This document shows, piece by piece, positions 16,140 to 39,800 of a DNA stretch of 64,000 nt. A model generated the notes under the pieces. It searched no databases, had not been told where the DNA came from, and saw only the letters and a list, made by a program, of their open reading frames with translations. The translations under genes were made by a program, and so were the position numbers. The DNA comes from Paecilomyces variotii. Taxonomy: Eukaryota. Where the stretch lies: the NCBI GenBank assembly GCA_004022145.1, contig RCNU01000006.1; one strand, written 5' to 3'. How positions within the stretch are numbered: the stretch's first letter is position 1; each line of letters begins with the position of its first letter.

Positions 16140-16978
16140 ATATCCCCCCTTATTAAAAGGCTTATCTTAAGCTATATAAAGTTTATTATATAGGTTTAAA
16201 TATTTAGGTATAGCTATAATAACAGTAATAAGTTACTGTTAAGATATACTTATTATATAAATTTATCTAATATTAGCTTTATTTTAATATTTTTATTTAA
16301 GAGATTAAGAGTATTTCTATTTTTTAATAATTAACTTCTATCCTCCTATCTATATATTAAGTTATTCTTTTCCTATTTCTATAGCTTATTTAATATTATT
16401 TTTAATAGTTTAAATATAGAAATAGCTAATAGTTATACAGATATATTAAAAATAGGATTTTTAAATTATTTTCTTTATAGGTCCTATATATATGCTTAAT
16501 ATAAGTTATAATCCTTTAGATTTATATAATAGTGCTAATTAATATAATAATACCTCTTAAGCGCTTTAAGTATATTTTATTTATTTTAGGCTCTTTTAAT
16601 AAGGCCTTTATAGCTAGCCCTAAGCTATTATAGCTATTAATTAAAGATTATCTGTTTAATTATTAGCTTAATATAGATAATAAGTAGCTTAATAAGCTAT
16701 CTCCTTCTTCTATATCTCTAATTATTAATATAATATTAGAATTAATAATTCTTTTTTTATAGATTATTCTATTTACTGCTATTAATAATAGTAATAAAAT
16801 ATCTTTATTAAGATTATCTATAGAAGACCCCCTAATAGAGAAATATTTCCTACTTAAAATATATAGGGATTAATTTATATTTAGCAATATAATTTCTCTT
16901 ATATATAAGGAGGTATAGGCTAGTCTATTATATTCTCTTTAAAGATTAAAATATAATTATAATAATACTATTCTTATT

Positions 16979-17855
16979 ATGCCTATAGTAAAAGAAATTT
17001 TTATTTAATTAGCTAAGAAATTATAAAGAAGGTTAAAAGTAAAAAAGGTCCCTAGCATAAAGATTTAAAGAACTTAAGATATTATTATAACTCCTATTCT
17101 TAAAGTTAAGATTATTATTAAAATACCTCCTCTATAGATTAATCTAGCTTTTATTAAGATAATAATATTAATTATTATTACTAATATTAATTATTATTAC
17201 TAATATTAATATAATAATAGATTATCTTATTACTTTTAAGATAGACCTTATTATAGATTTTTTTAGCCTAAAGGGTTTAATTAAAGATTTTTCTCCTATT
17301 CTATAGGAGATATATCTTTATTATTTAAAGGCCCTAGTGCAGAATCTAAAGTAATAATATATTTATCCTTATATTAATATAAAATATCTCTATTATAAGG
17401 GCCTTTATAAGCTATATATTCTTATACTATTAATATATAAGGCTAAATTAACTTATATTTAGAGTCTTAGCTAAGAGGCTTATCTCTTAAATAATTTAGA
17501 GTCTTTTAATAAAGCTATAAATACATATATTTCCTCTATAAAGATATATATATAGAAATCTATATTTAAGACTATTAAATATTAGCTTAATACTACTGCT
17601 ATTCTATTAATCTTATTATACTTTAAATTAAAATTATTATATCTTCTTTAAAAATTATATTAAATAATCTATTTATTAAACTGTAATATCTTATATATAG
17701 TAAATATATTTGCCTAGTTATAGGGACTGCCTCTATTCTCTAATAAGGAGGAGAAAGATATTATTAAGGGGTTTTATAGTAATAAAATAGCTAAATAGAA
17801 TAATTTTATAGGCCTATATTTAGATTATTAGCTAGGGCTAGCTTAGTTAAATTAA
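16979..17855 (+). pseudogene. Antisense accessory gene of Gypsy A (Cys6 Zn-cluster-like), RIP'd
   Basis: Intact ATG at 16979; a 19-bp tandem duplication at 17171-17208 shifts the frame. Six TAT codons at Cx2Cx11Cx8Cx2Cx6C spacing (17313-17417). Codon-level alignment with the family B ORF. Confidence 0.7.
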
Positions 17856-20800
17856 ATTATTCTTATTAGGATTTCTTTCTTCTATATTTTTTTTAAAACT
17901 CTTAAATTTTATAAAAAAATTAGAGAAAGAGTAATATATATAATAATATATTTAATAATAGTTAAAAAACCTAATAAGAAAAAAAATATTATTACCTATT
18001 TATCTTACTTTACTTTTTAATTCTTAGCTCTTCTTTACCTTACCTTTATTTAAATAGTTTACCTATATTAAAAGCCTTACTAAGGTTTTTATTATAATAC
18101 TCTTTTAAAGCTTTAATTATATATTTAAAATCTTTTAATATTTACTATAAGTTTTTATATAAAAGATATCTTTTTTATTTTATTAAAAACTATTTCTTCC
18201 TATAAAAGGTCTATTTATTAAGGATTTCTTCTATCTTTTATTTCTGTTCTCTATTAATAAAAACTAGATTTAGCTATTTAGGTTTTATCTTTTCTTATTA
18301 ATTATAAAGTTCTAGTAGAGATATATAGAATACTAGATATATTCTATTTAGGCTCTTCAATAATTATAATTAGTATACTTACTTTTTAATTATCTCTATT
18401 ACTTTATAAGGTCTAGAAAATTAGTAGTTTAACTTCTTATTTAATTAATTAATTTATAAATTCTTTATTAATAGAAGAACTTAATCCCTTATCTTATATA
18501 ATTTAAGTATATATTTCTTATTATAGTACTTTATTTATACCTTAATAATATATTATAAGTACTTCTCTAACTTTACCCTAATATTTAATAATTTTTTAAG
18601 TTATTTTTTAATAGCAAGAATATTTAATCTTATTCTTATATTATATTTATCCTAATTATTAGGATTAAAGCTATAAAGGGCCTTAAATAGTAAGTATCTA
18701 ATAGTAAAATACTTTATATTATTATAGATATACTTTGCTGCATTTAATAATAATACCTAGTTATCTTAATAATAATTTATATATACCCTTAAGTAATACT
18801 TTAAGGTCTAATTCTAGTGCTCTATCTGCTTATTTATCTGTAGATAAAAAGTAGTACTTATTAATTAGGTAATTTATATATATTAATAAAGCTTAGTCTA
18901 GTATTTACTAGTAAATACTAATCCTTAATTAGAAATAATTAATTTTAAGGGATTAAACTAGTAATATATTCTTTTTATTATTAGGTTAGCTAAGTCTTCT
19001 GCTATAATTATTTCTTAGATTAAAATATATAAAGCTATCTTAGAGTATTAGTCTATAACTATTAGGATTATATTATATTTAACTTCTTATTAAGTTAATA
19101 ATAGCAGGCTAATAATAAAATCTATTAATATATTCTGCTAGAGTCTTTCTGCTATAAGTAGTAAGCTTAACTGCTTATATAGCTTATATTTAAAAACTCT
19201 ATTCTTTTTATAGATATTATAGGTCTTTATATATTCTTATATATTATTCTATATACTTAGCTAATAAAACTTTTATTTAAATAGTTTTTCTATAGTTTTA
19301 ACTCTTTAATAGCTAGTATATAAATTATTATAATAAATTTATAATAATTCTTATTTTAGTAAATATTTATCTAGGATATAAATCTAATTCTATCTCTATA
19401 ATAGACTCTTATTATCTATAATCTATTTAGAGTTTTTAGCTTAATTAGTCTCTAAATTATTAATCTTTTTTAATATAAAGATATCTCTCTACTAAAGCTA
19501 TTTAAGTAATTCTAGAAGATTAAGCTTTAGAGAATTCTAAATTATCTCCCTATTAATAATCTTTAATATTAATAGTTTTAGCAGTAAGTATTTATAATTA
19601 CCTATATTATCTTTTTTATTTAAAATATATAATTTTAGTTTCTTTTATAGGGTAAGTAGTAGTCTAATCTCTTACTCCTTTTCTAAGAGTTTATAATCTA
19701 GTTTTTAAGATAGTATATTAGCTATATTTAAATAACCTAGCTTATATTTAATATGAAAGTTATAGCCTGTTAATAATTTTGCCTATCTTACCTGCTTATT
19801 ATTTAAAGTCTTTATTATAAAGAAGTAGTATAGGTTTATATAGTTAGTCTATACCTAAGCAAGATATTTACTATTATCTAAATAATATCTCTAGTATTTA
19901 AAAGCTTTAACTATTGCTAATAGTTTCTAGTTATATACTTTATATTAATATTTAATTTTAGTAAATTTCTTTAAGAAGTATATAACTAAGTACTATTATC
20001 TTATTGCCTTATTTATAAGCTATAATAGAATAATAGCTAAAATAAATCTTAAGGTATTTATAGCTATTATAATTAGCTTCTTTAAATTATAATATTATAA
20101 TATTAGTAATTTAATAAATATAGTTTTTAAATCTTTAAATACTTTCTATATTTTAAGTATTTATTTTAATAGGCCTATTTTCTTGCTATTTTTACTATCC
20201 TTAAGTAAGTCTATTAATAATATTATAATAGAGGAGTAATTATAAATAAATCTCCTAAAAAAACTTATAAATCTTAAAAAGACTTAAATATTATAAAAGG
20301 TCTTTAGTATAGGCTAATTATAAATTATTTTAATCTTAAAGAAATTTATCTTAATCTTATTATATCTTATAATAAATCTAAAAAAAGAAACTTTCTTCTT
20401 ATAAAATTTATATTTGCTTAGCTTTATATATAAATTATACTTATAAAGTCTCTCTAGTATTTTAAAAATATATTATTTATATTCTTTCTTATCTATTAAG
20501 AAGATTAAGATATTATCTAAGTATATAATATAGCAGATATCTAATAAGCCTCTTAATACTATATTAATATAGGCTTAAAATATAGCTAAAGTATTATATA
20601 GTCTAAACAGCATAATAAAATATTTAAAATAGCTATATTTAATTCTAAATATTATCTTTTATTTATTTTCTTTTTATATATAAATTCTATAATAGGCTTC
20701 TTAGAGGTTAAGTTTTATAAAGAATCTTATATCTATTAATTAATTTAGTATCTTATCTATTTATAGCAGTAAATAATAATTCTTAATTATTTAGATATTT

Positions 20801-21076
20801 AATCCTTAATAATTAATATATAAGCGCAGTTTATTATCTTTTTTAAGAATAAAAATAATTAGTAATTTAGCTAAGCTAGTTAAAGCCTAGATTTAATCTT
20901 ATTATTATATATTTTCTAAATATCTTTATAATATATCTAGTTCTCTAATAGAATATAGGTATAAAGGCTCCTATAGCAGTAACTTACTATTAATTAAATT
21001 AATTATATAGGTCTTAGTATCTTCTGGTAAAAGTAATATTTTAGCTCCCTCTTCTAAGAAGATATCTTAGAATTAT

Positions 21077-24000
21077 TGTAAGGAATAGGGGTTCCTGGGG
21101 GTTGCTGACGAATTACTCCGCCAGCGATTATAGCGAGAGGGGTAGTAGCTTTGCGTACCTAGCTTAGAGAAGGGTCTACCGGCGAGATAAAGGGTTAATT
21201 ATTATAATAAAGGGTCTAACCAGTATAGAAAAGGGTCTATACTAAAGGGTTCTAATAGTAAAGAGTCTATATAAGTAAGGAAATAGTAGGATATATATTA
21301 TATTAGAATAAATTGCTGGCTTCTAATAAAATAGCGATTTAAAGCCTGTTTATATTCTAAATCTTAAGTATTTCCTAGCTTTATCTTATATAAATCCTAA
21401 AAGCGGGGAAAGCAGGGTTTAACTAATTACCTTAGTATTATATTTAGATTTAGGGCTTTACTATAGTCCTGCAAGCTTATACTCTAACAGGGGGCTAAGA
21501 GTATAACAGTATCCCCCCCCTTTTTAAAGGCTTATCCCTAAGCTGTTATAAAGTTATTATATTAAATATAGAGTATAGCTTTATAGAGATTTATAGTATA
21601 ATAAATAAAAAAGCTTCTTATTGCCTTTATAATAAAGGGTTAAGAAGTTATATAAGCTGGGAGTATTATTTATATAATATTATAAGATTAGAATTTTAAT
21701 CTCTAGTAACTATCTTCTTATCTTCTGCTATATATAGCTTCTAATCCTAAATATATTTAAATAAAGATTTAGACGCGTTTTTAAGGTTATAATAGTACTA
21801 ACAGTATAGCAGTTTATTAAACTTAAAAAATTAATTATTTTTTTATTAGTTTCTAGAGCTTCTTGCTTTAGGAGTAAGTTATTTTAACTAACTATATTAA
21901 TATAAGCTAATTTAATTTAGATAATACTGCCCTAAATTTGTTTTATATCTAAGTAATATAAGAAGACTCCTTAAATAAGTATTCTAGTGCGAGATTTTAT
22001 ATATTATATACTAATTTCTATAGTATTAATAGCCTAAGGATATTATCTCCCTCTCTAGGAAGCTATCCCCTCTTTCTGCCTTTAAGATAGAGGATATAGC
22101 TGTTATTATTATAATATAGCTAAATCTAGTTACTGCTATAATATTAGAAAATAATCCCCTAATTATTATTAAGATATTAAGGACTTTAGCTATTATTATA
22201 ACGCTAGAGAGACTGCCTTTTTAGATAAATATTATCCCTTTTATAGCTATTAATAGATTAATATCTTTATTTATCCTAGGTCCTATAGAGGATTTATTAG
22301 CTAAGATAAATATTATATTAGAATTAAGATATAGAAGGTTTATATCTTTATTAAATTAGTCTTTTTTTATAATTTTAGTTACTATATAAGCGGGTTTATT
22401 TAACTTAATAATAGCACTAAAAAGCCTGTCGAAGAGGAAGAGGACTTATTTTATTATTAAGCTAACTGCTATAGCTAAGCTAAGGATAATTCTTATTTAT
22501 ATTATAAAAAGGCCTTAGAGATAAAGCACAGGGCGTAAGGAGGTTATTAATATAAGGACCTAGATTAAACTGGCTATTATTAAAATACTAATTAAGACTG
22601 TTATTATTACTATTATTAATATAATAGTAGAGAATAGCTTTACTACCTCTTAGTTAAATAAGGAGTTTTCTTTAATACTTTAAAAAATATGTCTTTATTA
22701 TTTAAAGGGGCTAATTAAGAATCTAGCACTTTAGTACATCTATGTTAATATTAATATTAAATGCGACTATTATAATTATAAGTATAAGCCCTATATTCTA
22801 GTCTTATTAATTTATAAGGATAAGCTTATTTATCTATAAAGCCTTAGCTAAGAGGCCTATCTCTTAGGTAATTATAAGTCTTTTAAGAAGGCCTATAGTA
22901 AGTATAAATCCTTTATAAAGGTATATCTGCGCAAAGCGCCTACTAAGATAGATATAGATAAGCTTATATCTATTATTCTATTAACCCTGTCTTTATATAA
23001 GTAATTTATAATATAGCTCTAGTAGGAGTTGCTTAAGTTATTTTATTTAATAGTATTAGATCTGCAGCGCATATAAGAAATTATATATATTGCTTATAAT
23101 ATTCCTCCTTTTTTTAATAAAGAGGAGGATAAATCTGTGTTAATAGGATTCTATAACAGTGAAGTAGATAAATAAGGGGAATTAATCTTAAGCCTATATT
23201 TTTAGTTCTTGCCGGGAATAGCCCAGTTAAAATAAATTTATTTCCAGATAGACTAGCTTCTTATATCCTTATTAAAACTCCTAAACCTTTGTAAATAGGT
23301 AAATAGAGAAAAAATAATATAAATTTAATAATAAAATAATTAAATAAAACCTATAAACCTAGTAAGAAAAAAGGGAAATCTTATTAATTCTATTAACTCC
23401 TTTTTCTAGAGCTTTTTAAAGCCCTTCTTAGAGAGGTCTTATTAACAGCTTATATTATTGCCTTAAATTTAGCTAATATATCTTAGGTATACTTAAGGTC
23501 TTCTTTAGGCTGTTATAAATTTTTATAATCTAGATAATCCTTCTATTTAATTAAATATTGCTTCTTCCCCCGCATTATCTATTTATCTAGAATAGCTTTA
23601 ATTTCCTATTCTAGTTTATTATCTATTAAGATTAAGTTTAAATACTTAAGTTTAGCCCCTAGTCTTTAATAATAGGGCTCTAATAGAGAGATATAAAAGA
23701 TTAAATATATTCTGCCTAGGCTCTTTAGAAGCCTAAGCTAATAGGCTTAAGTTTTAATTCTTTCTATAACTTTATAAGGTCCTAAATATTTTATATCTAA
23801 TTTCTTAATTAATTAATCTGTCTTTAAATTCTTTATTAAAAGGCAGACTTAGTCTCCTACTATATAAGATCTAGGCTTATACTTTTTATTATAATACTTT
23901 TATTATGCAGTAATAGCCTTTTAAAAAAATTCTTCTAATTAGGTATATATTTTAATAAGCTTCTTTAATTAATTATTAACTGCCGGTATATCTATTTGCT

Positions 24001-27000
24001 TTTTAGAATTATATTTATCCTAACTCTTAGGATTAAATCTATAAATAATATAGAAGGAAGTTATACCTATAGAAGTATAAATTAAATTATTATATATAAA
24101 CTCCGCTATAGTTAATAAAGATACTTAATTATCTTACTTATAGTTTAAGTAGACCTAGAGATAATACTTTAGCATCTAGTTCTACCTTTTAGTCTGGCTA
24201 TTAATCTAAAGATAGAATATAATATTTAAAAGTCTAGTAATTTAAATATAATAGCAAAGTTCTATCCAATATTTATTAATAAATAGCGCCCCCCTATCTA
24301 ATATAATTAATTATAGAAATTTAAAGCAGTTATAGATATAATCTATAATAAGGTTAGCTATCTTATCTACCTTTAATATTTTATAGATAAAGATATAGAG
24401 TATTATCTTTAAATAACAGTCTATAATTACTAATATTAAATTATAGATAACTCCCTATTTTTTTAATAGCGGCAGTCCTATTATAAAATCTATTAAGATA
24501 TTTTATTATAGCTGCATTGGGATTAGTAGAGACTTTAGCTCTTTATATAGCCTATATTATAGAGTTTAATTTTTCTAATAAATATTATATATAGATATAT
24601 ATTTCTATATATCTTATACTATCTTAAGCTAGTTAAATCTTCTTTAAAACAGCTTTTTAGTCTTCTTAATACTTTAGTACTTTATATAAAGGTTATTATA
24701 ATATATTTAAAGGAGCTCTTATTTTATAGTAAGTATATCTAGTATAAATATAGTATTACCCTTCTATAATAATCCTTTGCTATTTATTTTTTATATTATT
24801 TTTAAGCTGTCTCTAGAAGTATATATTTTTAATTCCCTAATTTTTTCTAAAATAAAGGTATCTCTTACTTAAAGCTATTTTAATATAAAAAGTAGGCTAA
24901 GAGTTATAGTATTTTAAATAGACTCTTCCTTAATTACCCTAATAACTAGTATTCTTTGTATTAAATATTCTAGACTATTTATACCGCCTATTTTAATAGG
25001 TTTATACTCTAGACTGCTTTCCTATATATATTTATTCTAAGCTTTATATTAAAGCTTTTTCTAGAAGGTTAGAAGTAATCCTATCTAGGATTTAGATTTA
25101 GATAGTTTAAAATCTACTCTTCTAAACAGGGTATTTATAGTATTAAGCTGTCCCAGCTTATATTTAATTTAAAAATTATACGCTATTAATAGTTCTACCC
25201 ACTAAACTTATTTATTATTTAATATCTTTGCAGTAAAGAAATAGTATAAGTTTATATAATTATTCTATACCTATATAGAGTATTTACTACCTTCTAAATA
25301 ATAATACTAATATTTAAAAGCATTAATAATAGCCAGGAGTTCTTAGTTATAGACCTTATAGCGTGCCTCTATTTTAATAAACTTCTAGGCATAATATACT
25401 ATAGGATGCCAGTTCTTAAACACAGTTTATTAGTCTGTCTAGATTCTAATTCTTAGACCTATCTTTAACCTAGCGCCTGAAGCTGTCTTATTACTATCTC
25501 CCTAAAGGAGTATAATAGCAAGGGTAAATCCTAAGATATTAATTGCTAGTATTATTAGCTTCTTTAAATTAAAATGCCTTAGCATTAGCGGAGTTATAAA
25601 AGCTAATTTCAGCTTATTAAATACCTTTACGGCTTCTTTAATCTAGGTAAATATTCTAGTTTTCTTCCCCTAAATACTTCCTTTTAGCAGACTAGTTAGG
25701 GAAGCTGTCTTTATAGAGTAGTTATAGATAAACCTTCTGAAGAAACTAGTAAATCCTAGAAAGACTTAAACTTCTTTAAAGGATTTAAGCTCCGGCTAGT
25801 CTCTAATAGTTTCTATTTTACTAAGATTTATTTTTACTTTATCTTTTCTTATAAAAAAATTAAAGAATTTAATTCTCTCCTTATAAAATTTATATTTAGA
25901 TAACTTTATATATAATTTATACTTTTATAGCCTCTTTAGAACCTGCACTATATATCTCTTATACTCCTTAATAGAGTTAGAGAAAATTAAGATATTATCT
26001 AAATATATAATATAACAGATATTTAATAACCCCTATAATGCCCAATTAATATAGGCTTAAAAAATAATAGGCGCATTATATAGGCTAAATAATATTATTA
26101 AGTATTTGAAGTATCTGTAATAAGTTTAGAAGGCTATCTTCTATTTATCTCCTCAGCAGATTTAAATCTAATAATAAGTATCTCTAAGATTAAGCTTAAT
26201 AAAGATCTTAGAGCTAAATAATCAGTTAAGCATTTTATTTACCTTAGGTAAAGGATATCTATTTTTTATAGTAATACTATTTAAAGCTCTATAATTAATA
26301 TAAAGCCTTAGCATACTATTTACCTTTAGAATAAATAGAATAAGTGCCTTTATAGGATTAGTTAATAGTTATATCTAACCCTTCTATTATATATCTTTAA
26401 GATATTTATATAAAATATTTAATTCTTTAGCAGAGAGATTATAAAGTCTATCTTATAAAGGCGCTTTACTATCTAAGAGTTTAATCTTATGTTTACTTAT
26501 CTTAGCAGGCAATATGCTCATATTCTTCTTTAAGAAAACCTTAGTATACTTCTTATATTCTAGAGATAGGTCTTTAGGAGTAATAGGGTTAATTTAGTCC
26601 CCATAGAGTATATAAATTATCTCTTCTTTTATTATCTTAGAGAATTATTAAGCGCTTTTAATTTTTACCTGTAACTAATATAAAATATAATATCTCTAAG
26701 TTATCGACTCCTAATCTATAATAAGATTTACAATATATAGCTATAGTTTCTTAAAAATAATACTTAATCTAAGTATTAAAATAATATAAAAACATACCTT
26801 CGCCTTTTTTATTATTTTTTTAGAGTTAGTAATATAGATCTCTACTTTAAATAATCTATATTTCTGAATTTTATGCCTATTAATAGATTTAAAGTTTATA
26901 TGCTATTAGAAGTTTAAAGGAATTTTATAATATATAGCTATATCTAGGCTAATATAGCAGCGGGCTGATCTAGAATTAATAAAGGCCTTATCTTTAAATA

Positions 27001-28597: not shown

Positions 28598-30379
28598 ATT
28601 ATATATAATATAGGGGAAGTTAAATTTCTTCTATATCTATTTTAATATATTCCCCTTATATATAATAGATTAGTTAATTCTATACTATCTCTGCAAATGC
28701 TTATAAGGTTTAAATCTTAACCTAGGGTAAAGCCTTCTACTAGTATCTTTAAGTTAAGTATCTTTAATTTATAATAGGATTATTATAGTATAACTATAGT
28801 AATCCTAAAATTATATTCTAATTCTTCTTAACTATATTAGGTTCTTATATAGAAATAATCTAGAAATTAATCTTATGTTATTCTATCTTCTTCTCTAAGT
28901 CCTTTATCTTAATAATAATTAAGAAGTAGCTATAAATTAGTATTATTTAGTCTCCTATCTATAAAATATATCTAACTAGCTTTTATAAAAACCCTTTATA
29001 TTTATAGTATAGTAAAAAATTACAATTAATAAAGTTAATATATATTTAGGAATTAAAAAGCGCGTTTATTTTTATAATATAACCCTTAATTAATATACTT
29101 ACTAAAGTTATAAACTCTAGCTTTATATCTTTAAGGTGCTAGAATATATTAAGCCTAATATCTTTATCTTTAAAGGGTTTAGAGTCTCTTTCTGTTTTAT
29201 TAAGATATTATTTATTAATATATTTATTCTTCTTATAATTAAAATATTAGCCTTCTTTTATTAATTATTCTTACTCCTTTAAAAATTTAAACTTCCTTAT
29301 TTTATATTTTAAATAGGTCTTTATAGATATTAACTAAGATAATTTATTCTTCTACTTATCCTATATATATAGGTAAAATTAATTCTTTTTCTTTATATAA
29401 GGTTAGAATTATTTCTTTTTCTTAAAGTCTTTTAATTAAGATTTAATAAAGTTTTTAAAACTTTATTTAATAATTATAGCCTTAGAAGCTAATTAGGATA
29501 AATTAGTTAAAATATATGCGCACTTAAATAACTAGTTCTATATATTTTCCTATAATATAGAGAAGAAGATTTAGCTTTATATATTATTTTTTAGGGCTAA
29601 TTTAATTCTATAAAGCTTAAATTTATTATAAAATTCCTGAGCAGTTTATTTTAGCTATTATTTTAGCCTTTAAAATTATATAGTAGCTATCTAGAGTTAA
29701 TATTATAAATTCTTAAGATAATTTAATAGCTATTATTAAAATCTCTATTATAAAGTTATAGTTAAAATAAGGGGTTTATAATTTTAAGCTATTTTATAGT
29801 TATCTGAAAGTAACACAGTAGTATAATTTACCTTACTTACTTTAGTTTAAAATATTAATATATTATAGGTAAAGTATTAGTCTATATAGCAGTACTAATA
29901 GTAGTAAGTATTTAGATCCTTAGCTTAATATTAATAAGGTTTAAGTAATTTAGTAATAGACCTAGATTTAAGAGCTATATTTATTTATTTTATTAGCTCT
30001 ATAATTGCAGCTATATTTATCTTTTTTAATAGTTTTTAAGTTATATCTTATAGAGCTTCTATCGCTGCGCTATTAATTTAATATTAGAAACTTAGTAAGA
30101 TAGTAAGTCCGGTACTAATAGTATTTAATTCTTATTAAATCTTAGGGTCTATAATACTTTTTAAATTTATTAAATTTCTTAAGTCTATAATAATTGTTAG
30201 TTTAGGCTAATTAAGACTAGTATTACTTATTAATCTTAATTGCTTAAGATTAGTAGTATTTATTAGTTTAAGTTAAGCGCTAGGCTTTAGGCTATATTTA
30301 GATTCTCTATGCTAATCTCTAGTACTACTTTCTAATATCTTTTCTCTTCTTAATATATTATTAGTTAAGTAATTTAAAC

Positions 30380-30748
30380 TATAAAGAGCTAGGGTAAGAA
30401 AGCTCTTTATTAGAGGTAATTAATTAGACTAGTTAAACAGAATATAAGATAAGAGATAAAGATACAGGCGAGTAGCTATCTATATATAGTAGAGTTAAAG
30501 ATTAGATTTAGTAGTAATTAGAATAAATTACTAATCTCTAACTTTTATTTCTTTAAGGGTTATTTATTTATTTATTTATTCTACTAGATTATTTAAATAA
30601 CCTAGTCTTAATAATTCTATCTATAACTAGTTAATCTAACTATTATATATAAATCTAGTTATCTTATTATCCTTTATTATCTATCTTAAATTATTTATCT
30701 TAGGTCTTAGTAGGTCCGGATTAAGTATTATAGCCCTAGTTTATAATA
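30380..30748 (-). repeat. Gypsy A 5' LTR
   Basis: Direct repeat of 15771-16139. Confidence 0.93.
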
Positions 30749-32286
30749 CTTAAACTCCCGTTCTTTTTTCCGTTTAGTTAACTATTACTATTTCTGCCTA
30801 GTTAATATTATTATGCTTATTATAATAAAACATTAGTTCGTTCTTTAATACTTTAGCCCCTTTTTTTCTTTTTACCCTATATTTTCCCTAAATTACTAGC
30901 CTATAATAACGTCCTAAAATATGCTTAAGCTAAGGATAGTATTTAAATTTTAAAGTTTTAGAAATTTTATAAAATTTAGGGGTCCGAATTTTATAAGATA
31001 AAATGTCTGAAATTTTAAAATACGCTAATAAATTAATATAGTAATCCTAACCTACTTAATATTTTTACCCTCTAATTAATAAGTAGTAAAAAATTAAAAT
31101 AATCTAAATTAGAAGCTATTTAACTCTAAATAATATTATATTTTATAGCTAGTAAAAGTATTAAATCTTTTAGATTTTAGTACTAACTATTTAGCTATAA
31201 ATAATTTTATAGCTAATAGGGGTTTTTTAGTAGCTTTACCTAAGAATTCCTATATAAGATAGGCCTTTTTTATTTTTTTATCTTCTAGAACTAGTAGTTT
31301 AGCTTTAATATTCCCTTTATTAAGGTATTCTGCGCCTCTGTTTATCTTTTATAATATATGTAAGTTTATATAGATATAGATAAGCTTATCTATATACTTA
31401 GGTTTAAGCCTATTATAGATCTTTATATGCTAAAGATTTATAGTTAAAAAAAATGTTTAGAGGTAATAGAGTTAGCAGTAGTTTTAAATAGTTATATAGC
31501 GAAGTTTATAAGATCTAGTATTACCCTAGTCTAATAAAATATATAGGTTAGTAAGTTATAAAAGTAGTAGAATAAGGGCTATATTATTATTCTTTAAAAG
31601 GCTTCTATATTAAATTACTACTAATAGATTACTCTATTATAAAAAGTTTTAGTTTACCTCTTAAAGTAGTAAAAATTAAATATTATTTACTTATTAGTAT
31701 ATTACTAGATTACTTAGTAAATAGCCTTATTTTATTTTTTATAGCTCTTATAATAAGTCTTAAAGTATAAATAATAAATAGCTTAATAAAGCCTTATAAG
31801 CTAATTATTTAAATAGGCGCTTTATTTAATGTTTAAGTAGAAAGTAATTTTATTAGCAAAAGATTTTAAAGGTCCTATCTTCTATATAAGGTATTACTAT
31901 ATTTTTATCTATCGCTGTACTACCTAAATTATTAGTAAAGGTATATTTAGGGTTATATTATTACTTATTATAGAGATATTTAAATCTATAGCCTTTAAAG
32001 CTAGTTAAATATTATAGATTAGCTTAACTAGTAATATTAAATCTGCTAGATATTCCTAGAATTATAGTAATAGGATTTCTAATTTAATAGGCAGAAATAT
32101 ACTAGTTTCTTTTATTTACTATTTAATTGTCTTACTACTATAATAAACTAAATAGAGTATTTAATATTATAATCCTTATTAAGTAATAATACTAAATATT
32201 AGAAATAGTTGCTTTTTATAGACTTTTAATTAAAAATCCTAAAGAATTATATATTACTTAAGAGAGCTTTAAAAGAAAGAGATAAT

Positions 32287-35200
32287 TATTATACCCCTAG
32301 CTCCCCGCTAGAGTATAAGCTCGCAGGACTATAGCGAAGCCCTAAATCTGAATATAATACTAAGATAATTAGTTAAACCTCGCTTTCTCTACTTTTAGGA
32401 TTTATATAAGATAAAGCTGGGAAGTACTTAAGATTTAGAATATAAATAAGCTCTAGATTACTATTTTACTAGAAGCTAGTAATTTATTCTAATATAATAT
32501 ATACCTTATTATTTCTTTACTTATATAGACTCTTTATTATTAGAACCCTTCGGTATAGACCCTTTATTATACTAGTTAGACCCTTTATTATAATAATTAA
32601 CCCTTTATCTCGCTAGTAAACCCTTTTTTAAGCTAAATATATAAAGCTACTATCTCTCTTACTATAATTACTAGCAGAGTAATTTATTAATAATCTCTAA
32701 GAATCCCTGTTTCTTATAATTCAGATTATTTAACCTAGCAATATAAGTAGCAGTATTAATATACCCTATAACTCAGGGGATAAAGGTCCTAGTACTTAGC
32801 CTATAATATATACTTTAAAGGGTTTAAAAAGCGCTAAATCTAGCTTACAGTAACTAATTACTAAAGCTAGCTTATAAACCCTAAGAGATATTTTAATAGG
32901 CCTAGGGATAAAATAAGCTTAAATAGAAGATAAACTATTAATAAAAAGAGATCTCTTATAGCTTCTTACCGCTAGTTATATTAATAAGCAGCTAAAGCTT
33001 AAGCTGCTAAAACTGCAAAGATATAAAGCTACTATATTTAATGCCTATTACTAATAATACTAGTATATAAATAAATATTTAACTTATAATGCTTTATTAT
33101 TTAAAGATAAAGCTAAGAAAGTTACTTATACTATAGTATTACTAGATAGAGAATTAGCTTAGTCTTAGATTTACTAGCAAGAGAATCCTAACTTTTAGAT
33201 ACTAACCTAGGAAGAATTTAAGGGTTAATTGCTAGATTTGCTTAATAATCTATATTACTAAAAATAAAATATAATAAACTACTTTTATACCTTAATCTAA
33301 TATTCTAATTAAACTGCTTAAACTTTCTTATACTATTTTAAGTAGGCTTAAGCAGAGTTAAATTAGGGTAAAGAGTTTAATAATAATAGAATTATCTAAT
33401 TTTATATCTTCTACATAAAATTATAACTTAAGGTTTAAATAAAATTGCTGAACTATTAAGACCTCTTAATTAATCTTAACTAATTAGTATCTTTAGCTAC
33501 TAATTAGGAAATAAATTAAAAGAAGAATAAACTCTTAAATCTCTCTATTACGCTAAATATAAGTAGACTAATATAGAGTATGCTAAAAGACTCTATTTTA
33601 AGGTAAAAGAGGAAGGAGATTAATAACTAGTGCGAGGGGATAAATAAATTCTAGAAAAAAAAGTTTAAATTACTAGCAGAATAAGACTAGCTTAAATAAG
33701 AAGGCCGCTGCTTTAATTATAATAAAAAAGATTATATATAGAGGTTTAAATTATGCCTAAAAAAGAAAGATTCTCTTAAAAAAAAAAGCCCGAGATTATT
33801 ATAGCCCTTTATAATAAAGGGTTTAAGATAAATAAAAAGTCTTTATATATTCTAATATAACTTTACCTATCTAATAATATATTTAAAAATAAGGCTTTTA
33901 TTAATTTAGGTTTAGCTTAATACTATATTAGCTTAGATATAGCTATATAATATAGAATTCCCCTAGACTTCTAGCAATATATAAACTTTAAATCTATTAA
34001 TAGGCATAAGATTTAGAAGTATAGATTCTTTAAAACAGAGATCTATATTACTAATTTTAAAGGAACTATAGAGAAAACAGATATATACTTTTATATTATC
34101 TTAATATCTAAATTATTTATTATCCTTAGGAAATTATAATTATAAGCTATTAATCCTATTATAAATTAAGAATTAATAACTTAGAGATATTATATTCTAT
34201 AATAGCTATAGGTAAAGATTAAAAATATTTAATAATTCTCTAAGATAGTAAAAGGAGAAATAATTTATATACTCTATAAGGATTAAATTAACCCTATAGC
34301 CTTAAAGAACCTGCCTTTAGAATATAAGAAATATACAGAGGTTTTTTTAAAAAAAAAATAAGTATATTACCTGCTAAAATAAATAAATACAAGATTAAGC
34401 TCTTAGACAGTATAGCACCTCTATAGGGGAGACTTTATAATCTCTCTATTAAAAAACTTAATATTTTATATAAATATCTTAAAGATATATAATAAAAAGA
34501 GTAGATATAATTATTAATAAGTCTTATAGAGGCACTTATTCTATTTATTCTAAAGGCAGATAATATACTAAGGCTTTATATTAACTATAGAGCTTTAAAT
34601 AGTATTATTATAAAAAACAGATATTCTTTATCTAGAGTAAATAAAATACTTAACTAATTAGTTGGCTCTAAGATCTTTACTAAACTTAATCTTAGGGACA
34701 CTTATTATTAGATTTAAATCTGCTAAAGAGATAAATAGAAAATAGCCTTTTAAACCTATTATAAATATTTTAAATATTTAGTAATACTGTTTAGCCTATG
34801 CAATACGCCTGCTACTTTTTAAGCCTATATTAATTAGGCATTGCAGGGGTTATTAAATATCTATTACATTATATATTTAGATAATATTTTAATCTTCTCT
34901 AACTCTATTAAGGAGTATAAGAGATATATAATATAGGTCTTAGAGAGGCTATAAGAATATAAATTATATATAAAATTATCTAAATATAAATTCTATAAGG
35001 AGAATTAAATTCCTTAATTTTTTTATAAGAAAAGATAAAATAAAAATAGATTTTAGCAGAATAGAAACTATTAGAGACTAGCTAGAGCTTAAATTCTTTA
35101 AGAAAATCTAAATCTTCTTAAGATTCGCCAGTTTTTTTAAAAGATTTATCTACAACTACTTTATAAAAATAGCTCTCCTAATTAATCTATTAAAAGAAAG

Positions 35201-38200
35201 CATCTAAGAGAAAAAAATTAAGATATTTATTTAAACTAGAGAAGCCGCGAAGGTATTTAATAAGCTAAAATTAGCTTTTATAACTCTATTAATGCTAAGA
35301 TATTTTAATCTAGAGAAGCTAATAATATTAGCAACTAATATCTTAGAATTTACCCTTATTACTATACTTCTTTAAGGAAATAGTAATAAGATAGCTCTAG
35401 GCGCTAGGTTAGAGACAGGTCTAAGAATTAGAACCTAGATAGATTAATAAACTATATCTAAGAACTAGTACCTTATAGTATATTATGCCCAAAAGTTTAT
35501 TAAAATAAAGGTATATTATAAGGTCTATAACTAAAAACTCCTGGCTATTATTAATACTTTTAAATATTAGTATTACTATCTAGAAAGTAATAGGTACCCT
35601 ATATAAATATAGAGTAATTATATAAATTTATGCTATTTTTTTACTATAAAAATATTAAATAATAGATAAGCTTAGTAGGCAGAATTATTAGCAGTATATA
35701 ACTTTTAAATTAAATATAAGCTAAGATAGCTTAATATTATAGATACTCTATTTAAAAAGGCAGATTTTAAACTATTTAAATCTAAATCCTAAATAAAATT
35801 ACTTCTAACCTTTTAGAAAAAGCTTTAGTATAAAGCTTAGAATAAGTATATATAAGAAAGTAATCTAGAGTATAAACCTATTAAAGCAGGCAGTACAGGT
35901 AGTCTAGAATATTTAATATAAAGAATATTAGTTATTAAAATAATTAGAGAAGAGTCTATTTAGAATACTATAACTCTTAGCCTGCTCTTTATATTAAAAT
36001 AGCTTTAAATAAGAGATACCTTTATTTTAGAGAAAATTAGAGAACTAAAAGTATATACTCCTAGAGATAGCTTAAAGATAATATAAAGAATAGATAATAA
36101 AAAATTATTGCAGAAAAATAATATTATATTTATACTAGATATACCTGCTATAAAATAAAAACTCTTTTAAATATATTATAATAACCTTTATATAGGGCAC
36201 TAAAATATTAAGAAGATTAAAAAGCTGTTTTAAAGAAGATTTAACTAGCTTAAGATAATACAAGATATATAAGAATATATATTTATATATAATATCTGCT
36301 AAAGAAATTAAGCTCTATAATATAAGCTATATAAAGAGCTAAAGTCTCTGCTAATCTTAGCACAGCTATAATAAAATATCTTAATAGATTTTATAATAAA
36401 ACTGCTGCTATTAAAAAAATAGGAAGTTATTTATAATTTAATATTAATAATTATAGACTATTATTTAAAGATAATACTCTATATTCTTATTTATAAAATA
36501 TTAAAAGTAGATAAGATAATTAACCTTATTATAAATTATATCTATAACCGCTTTAAATCTCTATAATTAATTATATTAAATAAGGGGGCGCTGTTTATTA
36601 ATAAATACTAGATAGAACTTTACTGCTATATTTAAATTATTAGATTTTTAAATACTATATTCTACCTCTAGACTAATAGCTAGACTAAAAGGCAGAACTA
36701 GATACTAAAATATTACCTCTAGGTCTACTTAAACTATAAGTAAGATAATTAGGTATTTTTATTAACTATGGCGGAGTTTATATATAATAATTTAATCTAT
36801 ATCTTTATAGGTATAATTCCCTTCTATATTATCTATAGATTTAATTTTAAAAGTTAAGATAAATATAACTTTAGGAAGTAAATAAATATACTAGCAGTTA
36901 ATAATTAATTAAAGAAACTTACTAAAATATATATTTAATTAGAAGAATCTTTTTAAAAGGCTATTACTGCGCAATAGAAGTATTATAATAAAAAATATAA
37001 GCTTAAATTCTATATAGTAGGAGACTAAGTCTGCCTTTTAATAAAGAATTTAAAGACAGATTAACTAATTAAAAAATTAGATATAAAATACTTAGAATCT
37101 TATAAAGTTATAAAGAGAATTAGAACTTAAGCTTATTAGCTTAAGCTCCTAAAAAGCCTAAGTAAAATATATTTAATCTTCTATATCTCCCTATTAGAGC
37201 CCTATTATTAAAGACTTAGGGCTAAATCTAAATATCTAGACCTAATCTTAGTAGATAATAAACTAGAATAGGAGATTAAAGCTATTCTAGATAAATAGAT
37301 AATATAAAGGAAGAAGTAATATTTAATTAAATAAAAGGGCTATTTAGATTATAAAAATTTATAGCAGCTTAAGGAGGATCTTAAATATATCTAAGATATA
37401 CTAGCTAAATTTAAGGTAATAGCGCAAGTTATTAATAAGACCTCTTTAAGAAAGGCTTTAAAAAGCTCTAAAAAAAGAAGTTAATAGAATTAGTAAGATT
37501 TCCCTTTTTTCCTACTAGATTTTTAGGTTTTATTTAATTATTTTATTATTAAATTTATATTACTTTTTCTCTATTTACCTATTTATAGAGGTTTAGGAGT
37601 TTTAATAAGGATATAAAAAGCTAGTCTATCTAGAAATAAATTTATTTTAACTAGGCTACCTCTAATAGGAACTAAAAATATAGGCTTAAGATTAATCCCC
37701 TCTATTTATCTACTTTACTATTATAGAACCCTATTAGTATAAATTTATCTTCCTTTTTATTAGAAAAAGGAGGAATATTATAAGTAATATATATAATTTC
37801 TTATATATGCTGCAGATCTAATATTATTAAATAAAATAATTTAAGCAACTTTTACTAAAGCTATATTATAAACTATTTATATAAAGATAAGGTTAATAAG
37901 ATAGTAAATATAAGCTTATCTATATCTGCCTTAATAAGCGTTTTATATAGATATATCTCTATAGAGGATTTATATTTATTATAGGCCTCTTTAAAAGACT
38001 TATAATTATTTAAAAAGTAAGCCTCTCAGCTAAGGCTTTATAGATAAGTAAGCTTATCCTTATAAACTAATAGGACTAGAATATAAGGCTTATATTTATA
38101 ATTATAGTAATTGTATTTAATATTAATATTAGTATAAGTATACTAAAGTACTAAATTCTTAATTAGCCCTTTTAAATAATAAAGGTATATCTTTTAAAGT

Positions 38201-39800
38201 ATTAAAAGAAACTTCTTACTTAGCTAAAAGATAATAGGGCTATTTTTTATTATTATATTAATAATAGCAATAATAATAATCTTAACTAATATTTTAATAA
38301 TAATTAGTTTAGTCTAGGTCCTTATATTAATAACCTTCTTATATCTTATGCTTTATCTCTAGGGCCTTTTTATAATATAAATAAGAGTTACTTTTAGTTT
38401 AGCTATAATAGCTAGCCTAATAATAAAATAAGTCCTCTTCCTCTTTAGTAGGCTTTTTAGCGCTATTATTAAGTTAAATAAACTTATTTATATAATAGCT
38501 AAGACTATAAAAAAAGGCTAATTTAGTAGAGATATAAACCTTCTATATCTTAATTCTAGTATAATATTTGTTTTAGCTAATAGATCCTCTATAAGACCTA
38601 AGATAAATAAAGATATTAATCTATTAATAGCTATAAAAGAGGTAATATTTATTTAAAGAGGCAGTTTCTTTAGTATTATAATAATAGCTAAAGTCTTTAA
38701 TATCTTAGCAATAATTAAGAGATTATTTTCTAATATTATAGTAGTAACTAGATTTAGCTATATTATAATAATAATAGCTATATCCTCTATCTTAGAAGTA
38801 GAAGAAGGGGATAATTTCTTAAAAGGGGAGGTAATATCCTTAGACTATTAATACTATAAAAATTAGTATATAATATATAAAATCTTATACTAGAATATTT
38901 ATTTAAGGAGTCTTCTTATATTGTTTAGATATAAAATAAATTTAAGGCAGCATTATCTAAATTAAATTAGCTTATATTAATATAGTTAATTAAGATAACT
39001 TACCTCTAAAGCAGGAAGCTCTAAAAATTAATAAAAAAATAACTAATTTCTTAAGTTTAATAAATTATTATACTGTTAGTATAATTATAACCTTAAAAAT
39101 ATATCTAGATCTTTATTTAAATATATTTAAGATTAGGAGCTATATATAGTAGAAGGTAGGAAGATAATTACTAGGGATTAGAATTCTAACCTTATAATAT
39201 TATATAAATAATACTTCTAGTTTATATAATTTCTTAACCCTTTACTATAAAAGCAGTAAGAAGCTTTTTTATTTATTATATTATAAACCTCTATAAAGCT
39301 ATACTCTATATTCGATATAATAACTTTATAATGGCTTAAGGATAAGCTTTTAAAAAGGAGGAGAATACTATTATACCCTTAGCTCCCCGCTAGGGTATAA
39401 GCTTATGGGACTATAATAAAGCCCTAAATCTAAATATAATACTAAGATAATTAATTAAACCCCGCTCTCCCTACTTTTAGGATTTATATAAGATAAAGCT
39501 AAGAAATGCTTAAGATTTAGAATATAAATAGGCTTTAAATTACTATCTTATTAAAAGCTAGCAATCTGTTCTAATATAATATATACTCTATTATTTCTTT
39601 ACTTATATAGACTCTTTATTACTAAAACTCTCTAGCATAGACTCTTTATTATACTAGTTAGACCCTTTATTATAATAATTAATCCTTTGTTTTACTAATA
39701 GATTCTTCTCTAAGTTAAATATATAAAGCTACTATCTCTCTCGCTATAATCGCTGGCGGAGTAATTTATTAGTAACCTCTAGAAACCCCCGTTTCTTACA
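32287..39800 (+). mobile_element. Ty3/Gypsy family B, copy 2 (7514 bp), RIP-inactivated
   Basis: 432-bp LTRs at 32287-32718 and 39369-39800. TSD ATAAT. YLDDI at ~34874. Chromodomain-like EWEIEAILDK at ~37265. Colinear with the reverse complement of B1. Confidence 0.95.
37642..38466 (-). pseudogene. Antisense accessory gene of Gypsy B2, RIP'd
   Basis: Same length as, and alignable to, the reverse complement of 22411-23235. Confidence 0.7.

Follow-up and report, generated by a model that had tools for sequence, protein, structure and literature searches.

Two families of Ty3/Gypsy retrotransposons in Paecilomyces variotii, A and B, bear an accessory open reading frame (ORF) antisense to gag-pol that is almost certainly a real gene, once open and carried by the elements themselves. 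It is present in all three copies of the two families (A, B1 and B2) in the window, i.e., the whole 64,000-nucleotide stretch of contig RCNU01000006.1 that was analysed, and always lies opposite pol (on the plus strand in A and B1, on the minus strand in B2). The predicted product has ~245-270 residues and is plausibly a cysteine-rich nuclear protein that probably binds zinc. A sequence-only reading of the window had proposed such a gene from a frame shared by A and B, and the proposal is borne out by profile matches to database proteins, by derivation of the copies through RIP-type changes alone, and by a common start and stop.

Retrotransposons of the window

The features of the window are listed in Table 1. 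Element A is ~7.4 kb in size and the elements of family B ~7.5 kb. The two LTRs of A are 87% identical; B2 and B1 are 85.8% identical over 7532 nt by self-BLAST, and 1024 of their 1068 differences are transitions. All three copies are dead, killed by repeat-induced point mutation (RIP), and copy A additionally suffered a 19-nt duplication. Between A and B, nucleotide identity is 66% over 2.8-3.9 kb and amino acid identity of pol is 47.8% over 1027 residues; the families are separate, as had been claimed, yet by these measures belong to one Ty3/Gypsy lineage, so that the antisense gene is common to both by descent. By sequence, the lineage is classed as chromovirus-type, with its nearest protein relatives in Paecilomyces.

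The gag-pol frame of B1, with 124 stops in 1587 codons (7.8%), matches the Pfam families RVT_1 (9e-16), RT_RNaseH (3.6e-11) and SH3_Tf2-1 (1.9e-11) in Gypsy order, and pol of element A is likewise on the minus strand. A chromodomain-like stretch of B1 (23605-23453) was recognized by eye only, the mutated sequence giving no match to Pfam Chromo. Because pol of B1 ends at ~23393-23450 and the 3' LTR begins at 21508, there is ~1.9 kb of extra DNA between them, in agreement with the ~1.8-1.9 kb noted previously, and no match to the antisense gene was found by tblastn in element C. Within this extra DNA, the frame of the antisense ORF is already stop-poor from ~22040, before the start of the ORF. 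Apart from the complement of the polypurine tract, the stretch between the 3' LTR and the ORF presumably houses the antisense gene's promoter and leader.

Table 1. Coordinates of retrotransposons, antisense ORFs and associated features in the window.
Feature	Position	Strand	Remarks
Host Zn2Cys6 factor	3072-4775		PF00172, Gal4-type
Element A	15771-30748	-	Full-length RIP-degraded Ty3/Gypsy, split by nested B1 (self-BLAST; ends read from sequence)
Element A LTRs	15773-16139; 30382-30748		3' LTR in element sense; 5' LTR
Element A target-site duplication	15766-15770; 30749-30753		CTTAA
Antisense accessory ORF, A	16979-17798	+	ATG at 16979; frameshifted; stop at 17796-17798
Tandem repeat, A	17163-17210	+	Perfect 19-nt unit, 2.5 copies; shifts frame by +1
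Six-Cys module, A	17313-17417	+	TAT at all six codons
Element B1	21077-28597	-	Nested in A
B1 LTRs	~21077-21508; 28164-28597		3' LTR; 5' LTR
B1 target-site duplication	21072-21076; 28598-28602		ATTAT
B1 stretch from 3' LTR to ORF start	21509-22410	+	~900 nt
B1 complement of polypurine tract	21509-21530		Adjoins LTR
Antisense accessory ORF, B1	22411-23175	+	254 codons and conserved stop; 13 internal stops
Six-Cys module, B1	22690-22794	+	22690 TGT, 22699 TAT, 22735 TAC, 22762 TGC, 22771 TAT, 22792 TAT
B1 spacer, ORF end to pol end	23176-23392		Convergent; ~220-275 nt
B1 gag-pol	23393-28162	-	RT, RNase H, integrase SH3
Element B2	~32282-39805	+	B-family copy, inverted relative to B1
Antisense accessory ORF, B2	37702-38466	-	254 codons and stop; 13 internal stops
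Six-Cys module, B2	38083-38187	-	TAY at all six codons
Element C	48600-54561

Antisense reading frame and its database relatives

The start of the ORF falls at the same position in all copies, as ATG in A, as ATA in B (at 22411 in B1, where the earlier reading had placed it) and as M1 of an apparently un-mutated protein of Paecilomyces lecythidis (P0003, below); the ATA of family B is read as a RIP-mutated ATG. The stop, at 23173-23175 in B1, occupies an alignment column common to the window copies and to the ends of three database proteins (P0001, P0003 and P0004). The frame had originally been drawn too long, the true stop being 60 nt earlier in B1 and 57 nt earlier in A. Within the conserved part of the ORF, the alignment of A and B contains three indels, each of 3 nt, and just beyond the stop it contains indels of 1, 2, 4 and 5 nt. 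Internal stops interrupt 5% of the codons of the B1 ORF, a lower proportion than in its gag-pol frame.

A profile made from the three broken frames of the window, and hence weak because it rests on mutated copies, was searched against 1.84 billion proteins of any length (E<=1e-3) and matched four: P0001 (6.8e-26), an NCBI hypothetical protein of P. variotii; P0002 (7.9e-19); P0003 (1.7e-9), a 243-residue NCBI hypothetical protein; and P0004 (4.5e-4). The family is tiny in the databases, consisting of two named proteins and two fragments. When the four proteins were compared with the window by tblastn, they matched at three loci only, on the strand opposite pol.

Changes of C to T and G to A alone explain 172 of 173 aligned codons between copy A and P0001 (shuffled control: mean 33.9, maximum 51 codons), and wherever copy A has one of its nine stops, P0001 has R, Q or W; by sequence, P0001 is taken to be a copy of family A itself. 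Between B1 and P0004, RIP-only derivation holds at 34 of 34 codons. P0003 is RIP-compatible with B and A at only 50-63% and therefore represents a separate lineage. A conservatively reconstructed progenitor of A has no unavoidable stop in 173 codons; the same is true of the in-register sense frame, so this test alone does not settle the strand.

Architecture of the predicted protein

The protein consists of a basic N-terminus, a variable Ser/Pro-rich linker, a module of six cysteines, two to three helices and an acidic C-terminal motif. The basic and acidic ends had both been foreseen: the N-terminus reads KRKR in B and RRRGRGRPRK in P0003, the only member with an AT-hook-like motif, and the tail PPFSD[DE]E is conserved. 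The six-Cys module has the spacing Cx2Cx11Cx8Cx2Cx6C in all lineages. Six TAT, TAC, TGT or TGC codons at this spacing had been reported for the window, and TGY or TAY indeed occupies 18 of 18 module codons in A, B1 and B2; in B1 the first (TGT) and fourth (TGC) positions still encode cysteine, as described. The inference of an ancestral cysteine at every position agrees with P0003, in which all six predicted positions (93, 96, 108, 117, 120 and 127) are cysteine. Binding of zinc by the module is considered probable.

Structure prediction of the six-Cys region, suggested along with the sequence-only reading, gave weak models. In the AlphaFold2 model of the whole protein, the module has pLDDT <50 and contains two strands rather than helices, with a hairpin at residues 97-113; in a model of the fragment, a helix begins after the first cysteine, the first half of the module reaches only 64-76 and the second half remains below 50. 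The helices at residues 132-184 were predicted with pLDDT of 73-84 in the whole protein and 84-86 in the fragment from a single sequence.

Relationship to fungal zinc clusters

Zn2Cys6 domains have the consensus spacing CX2CX6CX5-12CX2CX6-8C. The module shares with this family (PF00172) the six conserved cysteines, and its loops 2-5 fit, but loop 1 has 11 residues, not 6, which places it outside the definition. No Pfam family, Zn_clus included, was matched at E<=10 by P0003 or P0001, and none by the three window frames; the host Zn2Cys6 factor in the window scored 29 bits, the cut-off being 21. A sequence search of the PDB with the protein returned nothing. Foldseek found no PDB structure at E<=0.001; the nine matches at E<=10 were helical proteins or of low probability, with no zinc cluster among them. 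The claim of Zn2Cys6 membership is thus not upheld, given the silence of Pfam, the long first loop and the weak structure models.

Nevertheless, the second half of the module looks like a fungal zinc cluster. Among ESM Atlas neighbours of residues ~86-138, 7 of 10 rows are Zn_clus-bearing clusters, the aligned part being PF00172 in two of the seven (TM 0.45-0.49, all below threshold), and the sole local match in an hhalign comparison with the host Zn2Cys6 factor, at a probability of 0.11%, is C4x2C5x6C6, in the same half. Resemblances to Gal4-type factors are the six cysteines, a Cx2Cx6C following an 8-residue loop that holds Arg-Pro, basic residues after the first CxxC, helices after the module, and an acidic tail; differences are the length (~245 residues), the location on a mobile element, and the absence of the fungal-specific middle homology domain. 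A fold derived from Zn2Cys6 is given slightly less than an even chance.

The gene may be real and the module still not a Gal4-type binuclear cluster. Cysteines 1, 2, 4 and 5, arranged as CxxC-x20-CxxC, would suit the spacing of ribbon-like folds, and the module could be another small zinc fold, such as a CxxC...CxxC ribbon or a treble clef with two extra cysteines. The protein might then make contacts with proteins or RNA (Gag, integrase, the pre-integration complex or chromatin factors) instead of regulating through sequence-specific DNA binding. The beta-hairpin in the model of the full protein, the failure of Zn_clus to match, the first loop and the strongly conserved C-terminal motif, which resembles a docking peptide, are all compatible with such a fold. 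It is nonetheless rather unlikely, considering the low pLDDT of the hairpin, its replacement in the fragment model by a helix right after the first cysteine, the structural neighbours, which are Zn_clus clusters and not ribbons, and the parallel between Cx2Cx6C after its RP-containing loop and the host Zn2Cys6 domain of the window.

Conservation and origin of the antisense gene

Divergence of A from B1 in transversions is 0.18-0.21 in the ORF, compared with 0.29-0.30 in the spacer upstream of it, 0.25-0.30 in gag and 0.12-0.21 in pol; that of the antisense gene is therefore similar to pol and lower than gag. At codon positions 1, 2 and 3 of the ORF there are 30, 34 and 49 transversions, each of 192, a weak excess at the third position (chi-square ~5.3, p ~0.07). 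Differences between A and B that had been cited as synonymous are all C/T or G/A; being of RIP type, they are uninformative on selection.

The gene could have belonged to a host family, with P0003 a chromosomal gene of P. lecythidis and a copy of it taken up by an ancestor of A and B, and with the element copies perhaps passengers that have no role. Gene capture is one of the origins discussed for plant antisense ORFs in the pertinent passages of PMC7264820, and P0003 does stand apart as a lineage, but this history is improbable. P0001 belongs to family A, the length-unrestricted search with its weak profile from mutated copies revealed no longer or host-like relatives, and the gene is found at the same site and in the same direction in both families, despite a DNA difference of 34% between them. 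The shared site and pol-like divergence indicate that it was retained throughout the separate history of A and B.

Still less probable is that antisense transcription itself matters and the ORF is incidental, the RNA pairing with genomic RNA to feed silencing or damp expression. With the two genes convergent, an antisense transcript would necessarily overlap the full-length sense RNA, and a role mediated by double-stranded RNA is raised as an option for plant antisense ORFs in the passages of PMC7264820; an incidental ORF, however, would not preserve its six cysteines, the phase of its indels, the positions of start and stop, and a conserved C-terminal motif in three lineages.

It is very improbable that there is no gene and that annotation pipelines in two genomes mistook for one either a frame open by chance or the opposite strand of a sense feature: the stop-free sense frame of the progenitor, the stop-poor sense-strand frames just upstream and the weak codon-position signal would allow it, but the frame as originally drawn in B1 contains 16 stops over 276 codons, compared with 25 in the in-register sense frame and 25-39 among the five remaining frames, start and stop keep their alignment columns, cysteine spacing is regular in all lineages, the helices reach pLDDT 84-86 from a single sequence, and none of the three sense or three antisense frames of the B1 stretch matches any Pfam family.

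Comparison with known antisense genes

Retroviruses also have antisense genes, among them HBZ of HTLV-1, a bZIP factor expressed from the 3' LTR, and ASP of HIV-1. These resemble the gene of A and B in their location close to the 3' LTR of an element that replicates by reverse transcription and in encoding a regulator with a DNA-binding type of domain (here predicted), but they are unrelated in sequence, HBZ has a bZIP and no cysteine cluster, and their hosts are animals.

The ORF of A and B falls into the class of antisense accessory ORFs named aORF-3R in plants: it occupies the gap separating pol from the 3' LTR, within the target-site duplications and in the antisense orientation, with A and B2 laid out like B1, and it is conserved like other element proteins in the three window copies. 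Plant examples given in PMC7264820 are gene23 of maize Grande, rice RIRE2, Silene Retand and Phaseolus PvRetro13. According to the same passages, most members of a plant element family carry the antisense ORF, which is conserved to about the same degree as other element proteins; the products do not clearly resemble any known protein, a nuclear location is given for at least one of them, and they are suspected to be regulators. Position and orientation are the same as here, but the plant elements described there belong to non-chromovirus lineages, and the protein of A and B has a defined six-Cys module and a build like that of a transcription factor.

The suggestion that such a gene was new to fungal Gypsy elements does not stand, since in Boty of Botrytis and Sclerotinia the space from pol to the 3' LTR holds an antisense gene named brtn (Zhao et al. 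2011, Virology 417:248, as cited in PMC8365987, PMC4227169 and PMC7264820). Boty, too, belongs to the chromovirus type of fungal Gypsy elements, and its additional gene likewise runs antisense to gag-pol, but its hosts are Leotiomycetes instead of Eurotiales, and the likeness considered here is one of position and orientation. No Botrytis protein was among the database matches to the antisense protein; brtn is reportedly missing from the current B05.10 annotation, and the literature passages on Boty report no cysteine module or other domain for it. In P. variotii CBS 144490, Tn123 is a putative Tf2-type retrotransposon of 7,091 nt (231,587-238,677), RIP-mutated copies of which form AT-rich regions (PMC6300479). 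It is comparable to A and B, by description only, in the genus of their nearest proteins, in its similar size and in its fate under RIP; the passages on Tn123 in PMC6300479 do not mention an antisense gene. Plant and Botrytis elements are thus already known to carry accessory genes of this type antisense to gag-pol, none of them with an assigned function in the passages cited.

Proposed role of the antisense gene

The explanation favoured here, an element-borne antisense gene for a zinc-binding, DNA-binding regulator, is credited as a whole with about an even chance of being correct. The antisense messenger would start in the ~900 nt beside the 3' LTR, or within the LTR, and run towards pol, opposite the genomic RNA. 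Its product would bind zinc through the six-Cys module, enter the nucleus and bind DNA, acting as the element's own regulator, although DNA-binding regulation of the element, considered by itself, is put forward tentatively from the sequence features. Because of the acidic tail, the likeliest role of the protein would be trans-activation of the LTR promoter, and it may less likely serve as a brake on the element or as an aid to targeting.

Transposon block and its elements

GC content is 0.44-0.54 at both ends of the window and 0.18-0.27 across approximately 15.7-56 kb, a block in which TpA/ApT is 1.42 (0.66-0.90 in the flanks) and (CpA+TpG)/(ApC+GpT) is 0.32 (1.03-1.29 in the flanks), ratios that bear the mark of repeat-induced point mutation (RIP; C>T and G>A changes). 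Ordinary host genes lie at the borders of the block. Four LTR elements were mapped in the window by self-comparison and reading of their ends: A, B1, B2 and C (see table). B2 is 85.8% identical to B1 over 7532 nt, with transitions accounting for 1024 of the 1068 differences. The pol gene of B1 lies in a single minus-strand frame with Pfam matches to RVT_1 (9e-16), RT_RNaseH (3.6e-11) and SH3_Tf2-1 (1.9e-11), and appears, by eye, to finish with a chromodomain-like stretch. In A, pol has the strand in common with B1 and shows 47.8% identity to it over 1027 residues, and the DNA of A and B is 66% identical over 2.8-3.9 kb; the LTRs of A gave no match to those of B in self-comparison. The sequence-only reading took A and B for distinct families without evident LTR similarity; they are two families within one lineage. 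C is from another Gypsy family (34.5% identity to B1 in pol over 449 residues), with neither room for the antisense gene described below nor any match to it.

The 5-nt duplication bordering B1 reads ATTAT in element orientation, as does that bordering B2, whereas the sequence farther out is different in the two; insertion may favour targets that are AT-rich and have already been mutated, or the coincidence may be due to chance in AT-rich DNA. Two further stretches comprise approximately 10 kb more of RIP-degraded DNA, neither of which gave a match to B1 gag-pol, and the longer of which matched no Pfam family in its three plus-strand frames.

Coordinates of host genes, retrotransposons and associated features in the window
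Feature	Position	Strand	Remarks
Aldo/keto reductase domain ORF	1158-1790	-	
Host Zn2Cys6 transcription factor	3072-4775	+	Zn_clus 1.2e-6, Fungal_trans_2 1.4e-6; 11 kb from transposon block
SWIRM domain ORF	6851-8059	+	
DUF7730 ORF	9699-10232	+	
Amidohydrolase domain ORF	12923-14014	+	
Element A	15771-30748		LTRs 87% identical; target-site duplication CTTAA
Stop-poor stretch upstream of ORF, A	~16500-16978		
Element B1	21077-28597		nested in A; target-site duplication ATTAT
Duplication sites, B1	21072-21076 / 28598-28602		
Stop-poor stretch upstream of ORF, B1	22040-22410		
Further RIP-degraded DNA	30749-32264		
Element B2	~32282-39805		inverted relative to B1
Duplication sites, B2	~32277-32281 / 39806-39810		
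Stop-poor stretch upstream of ORF, B2	38467-38840		
Further RIP-degraded DNA	39806-48599		
Element C	48600-54561		pol on + strand
Transglutaminase-core (Rad4-like) domain ORF	57633-58094	-	

An antisense gene and its database relatives

The pol of B1 ends at approximately 23393-23450 and its 3' LTR begins at 21508, so that approximately 1.9 kb is spare between them; A has the same layout, with extra DNA from pol to the 3' LTR, as had been noticed from the sequence. The plus-strand frame proposed to be coding in this DNA, antisense to gag-pol, has 16 stops in 276 codons as against 25-39 in the five other frames. The three broken frames were combined into a profile, stops being written as X, and this was searched against 1.84 billion protein representatives of any length; at E<=1e-3 it found four proteins and no others: P0001 (KAJ9271474.1; 207 aa; 6.8e-26), a hypothetical protein of Paecilomyces variotii; P0002 (82 aa; 7.9e-19), unnamed, on a 952-nt contig; P0003 (KAL1854635.1; 243 aa; 1.7e-9), a hypothetical protein of P. 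lecythidis; and P0004 (34 aa; 4.5e-4), unnamed. In tblastn against the window, these four proteins matched the three ORF loci alone, always opposite to pol. Relatives made up 2 of 420 and 2 of 4256 candidates in further protein searches, with none among proteins of 30-132 residues; longer proteins were covered by the length-free profile search alone, its profile having been built from mutated copies. Two scans of metagenome contigs gave 315 and 269 pattern matches and no confirmed relatives.

P0003 shows no sign of RIP and is the only relative that appears intact. The start column of P0003 (MPP...) has ATG in A (16979) and ATA in B (22411), the latter fitting a G>A change of ATG, in agreement with the start that had been proposed. 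The C-terminal ends of P0001, P0003 and P0004 share the stop column of the three window copies, which places the ends of the ORF at 17798 (A), 23175 (B1) and 37702 (B2), approximately 60 nt before the end chosen from the sequence. Within these limits the B1 ORF has 13 internal stops in 254 codons (5%), a load no worse than that of B1 gag-pol (124 stops in 1587 codons, 7.8%). The B1 frame is 77% identical to that of B2 and 46% to that of A in a three-copy alignment. All three indels between A and B in the conserved part of the ORF are of 3 nt, and those just beyond the stop are of 1, 2, 4 and 5 nt. The frame of copy A changes at a perfect 19-nt tandem repeat (17163-17210). De-RIP of two copies, B1 and B2, removed none of 16 stops.

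The six Tyr or Cys codons are where the sequence-only reading had placed them: all 18 cysteine-site codons across A, B1 and B2 are TGY or TAY, and B1 still has Cys at positions 1 and 4. The prediction that these sites were ancestrally cysteines was borne out by P0003, in which all six are Cys rather than Tyr, His or Arg (residues 93, 96, 108, 117, 120 and 127), spaced exactly as Cx2Cx11Cx8Cx2Cx6C. P0001 and P0002 are partly mutated, with Cys at some sites of the module and Tyr at the rest. P0001, which matches 17205-17798 and has Tyr at three of the six sites, begins at an internal Met approximately 33 codons past the ATG of A and lacks approximately 23 residues present in A, the likely result of an intron call that bypassed stops.

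Each window codon was scored for whether C>T and G>A changes alone could have produced it from a codon of the residue aligned to it. Such derivation accounts for 172 of 173 positions of A against P0001 (mean 33.9 and maximum 51 with shuffled residues), with the nine stops of A aligned to R, R, R, Q, R, W, Q, Q and Q, and for 34 of 34 positions of B1 against P0004. P0003, at 118 of 236 positions for B1 and 117 of 185 for A, is a third lineage. P0001, annotated as a hypothetical protein, is a transposon gene in part mutated by RIP, and for annotation in general, gene models like it are partly mutated transposon genes, not host genes. The near-complete match of A to P0001 makes P. variotii or a close relative the probable source of the window.

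The ORF frame is also poor in stops for approximately 300-480 nt upstream of the inferred start (5 stops in approximately 127 codons in B1), and stops are scarcer still, at 1-3 per 80 codons, in one sense-strand frame of that stretch. By eye, a short motif, F.AIN..ISL...IED.L, is common to A and B in the ORF frame here; tblastn of A against B upstream of the start gave weak low-complexity matches (best E 0.001-0.003), some of them strand-mismatched. The scarcity of stops may mean a longer gene or a further exon upstream, or may be an effect of composition.

Strand and constraint

The synonymous differences between A and B that had been quoted are all C/T or G/A, and are uninformative on selection because all are RIP-type transitions. 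RIP cannot produce transversions, and between A and B1 these stand at 0.18-0.21 in the ORF, as against 0.29-0.30 in the spacer beside the LTR, 0.12-0.21 in pol and 0.25-0.30 in gag. By codon position, transversions in the ORF number 30, 34 and 49 of 192 each (p approximately 0.07, chi-square), a weak lean towards the third position; the pol control gave 12, 34 and 17 of 116.

A sense-strand ORF in the same register was considered and rejected on stop counts, conserved ends and the cysteine pattern. Conservative reconstruction of the A progenitor did not exclude it, as this frame too has no unavoidable stops in 173 codons, and that reconstruction did not settle the strand. The antisense strand is assigned because start and stop are conserved, the cysteines are regularly spaced across lineages, the in-register sense frame carries the heavier stop load in the mutated copies (25 as against 16 per 276 codons), and helices are predicted from the single sequence at pLDDT 84-86.

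Protein architecture and the Zn2Cys6 question

The N-terminus of P0003 is basic (RRRGRGRPRK), which we take to resemble an AT-hook, no model having matched it; B has KRKR, and A a run of Lys/Arg. Next, in P0003 and the alignment, come a variable Ser- and Pro-rich linker, the six-Cys module, three predicted helices in P0003 (132-151, 154-184 and 191-220; pLDDT 73-84 over 131-180 by AlphaFold2), and a conserved C-terminal tail, GLPPFSD[DE]E...G[FL]YxG[EK]V. The basic N-terminus and acidic tail read from the degraded copies are present in the alignment of the relatives. AlphaFold2 was not confident over the module, whether in the full protein or in a fragment, and its full-length prediction from a seven-row alignment had a mean pLDDT of 47.4. 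When modelled as a homodimer together with four zinc ions, residues 84-225 of P0003 scored 0.02 against a mark of 0.32, which is evidence neither for nor against such a dimer.

Neither P0003 nor P0001 matched Pfam even at E<=10, nor did the mutated window frames, and intact relatives had no match in the PDB by sequence search or Foldseek. The first loop of the module is 11 residues long as against 6 in the Zn2Cys6 definition; the other loops fit. The host Zn2Cys6 transcription factor, used as a comparator within the window, scores normally in Pfam, and profile comparison with it gave one local match, pairing C4x2C5x6C6 with the same half of the host domain at a probability of 0.11%. For the ESM Atlas model of P0003 (residues approximately 86-138), clusters bearing Zn_clus made up 7 of 10 rows among the matches listed, and in two of these the aligned part was PF00172 itself; these rows had TM 0.45-0.49, and every structure row was flagged as under the bar. 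The three best structure rows among the matches listed were unnamed ascomycete clusters of 105-198 residues.

The ESM Atlas feature neighbours nearest to P0003 are ascomycete clusters of 105, 132, 198 and 228 residues, with 52-157 members and feature similarity of 0.86-0.91, and those of 105, 132 and 198 residues are also nearest by structure for the cysteine region (TM 0.54-0.66). These clusters may be distant kin that sequence searches missed.

The module has six cysteines, probably binds zinc and is Zn2Cys6-like in its second half. It is not placed in the family because of the silence of Pfam, the 11-residue loop, the unconfident models and the sub-threshold neighbours. The silence of Pfam and the 11-residue loop also suit a different zinc fold working through protein contacts, a less likely reading, with the Zn_clus neighbours and the fitting second half on the other side.

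Possible function and relation to known elements

In the three copies examined, the gene was carried by the elements, open, conserved and antisense, and is now inactivated; the observation made from the sequence is confirmed, and its interpretation partly supported. Six-Cys module, basic N-terminus, helices and acidic tail together resemble a small transcription factor. The protein would be nuclear and would bind zinc and DNA, and it would regulate its own element, most likely, in view of the acidic tail, by activating the LTR. The mRNA would start in the approximately 900 nt beside the 3' LTR, or within it, and would converge on pol across a gap of approximately 220-275 nt. A captured host gene is an unlikely rival: P0003 is a separate lineage and capture is one origin discussed for plant antisense ORFs (PMC7264820), but the gene has the same place and orientation in two families and has diverged about as much as pol. 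A role at the RNA level would fit the antisense overlap with genomic RNA to which convergence on pol would lead, and is very unlikely given the conserved cysteines of the protein. That the stretch is no gene at all would fit its weak third-position lean, and is the least likely reading in view of the shared start and stop, the regular cysteine spacing and the lighter stop load of the antisense frame.

For the plant Gypsy elements Grande, RIRE2, Retand and PvRetro13, a 2020 review (PMC7264820) describes antisense ORFs located from pol to the 3' LTR; according to it, no such ORF has an assigned function or recognisable domain, and those of the plants show no clear database similarity, the protein of one being nuclear and a regulatory role suspected. 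The sequence-only reading knew of no such gene in fungal Gypsy elements, a point that fails on brtn, an antisense gene that Boty elements carry in B. cinerea and S. sclerotiorum (Zhao et al. 2011, as cited in PMC7264820, and likewise in two Botrytis papers, PMC8365987 and PMC4227169). The gene described here has its position and orientation in common with the plant ORFs and with brtn, a likeness of layout. In the literature searched, retrotransposon-encoded zinc-cluster proteins or further fungal antisense genes were represented by Boty/brtn and the plant cases alone. The gene is an antisense accessory gene of an LTR retrotransposon, a kind already known; the novelty lies in a cysteine module that can be defined and in a host genus that is tractable.

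In its fullest form, the proposal would make this the first retrotransposon found to supply a zinc-cluster-type DNA-binding factor of its own. The factor, a divergent derivative of Zn2Cys6 proteins whose first loop has 11 residues, would be encoded antisense beside the 3' LTR and would activate the LTR or, with the integrase chromodomain, steer integration into AT-rich, RIP-mutated heterochromatin. We consider this unlikely as a whole; if true, a mobile element would have captured and remodelled a host transcription-factor fold, and one antisense accessory ORF would finally have a function assigned.

P. variotii is reported to have active RIP and to be open to transformation and crossing, and to contain Tn123, a Tf2-type element of 7.09 kb that is itself unmutated and gives rise to AT-rich regions through its mutated copies (PMC6300479); passages on Tn123 there mention no antisense gene. 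With these properties, the unmutated Tn123 and the apparently intact P. lecythidis copy, the role of antisense genes becomes testable in a tractable fungus, and the gene offers a concrete handle on antisense accessory ORFs, which recur in plant Gypsy elements and in Boty.
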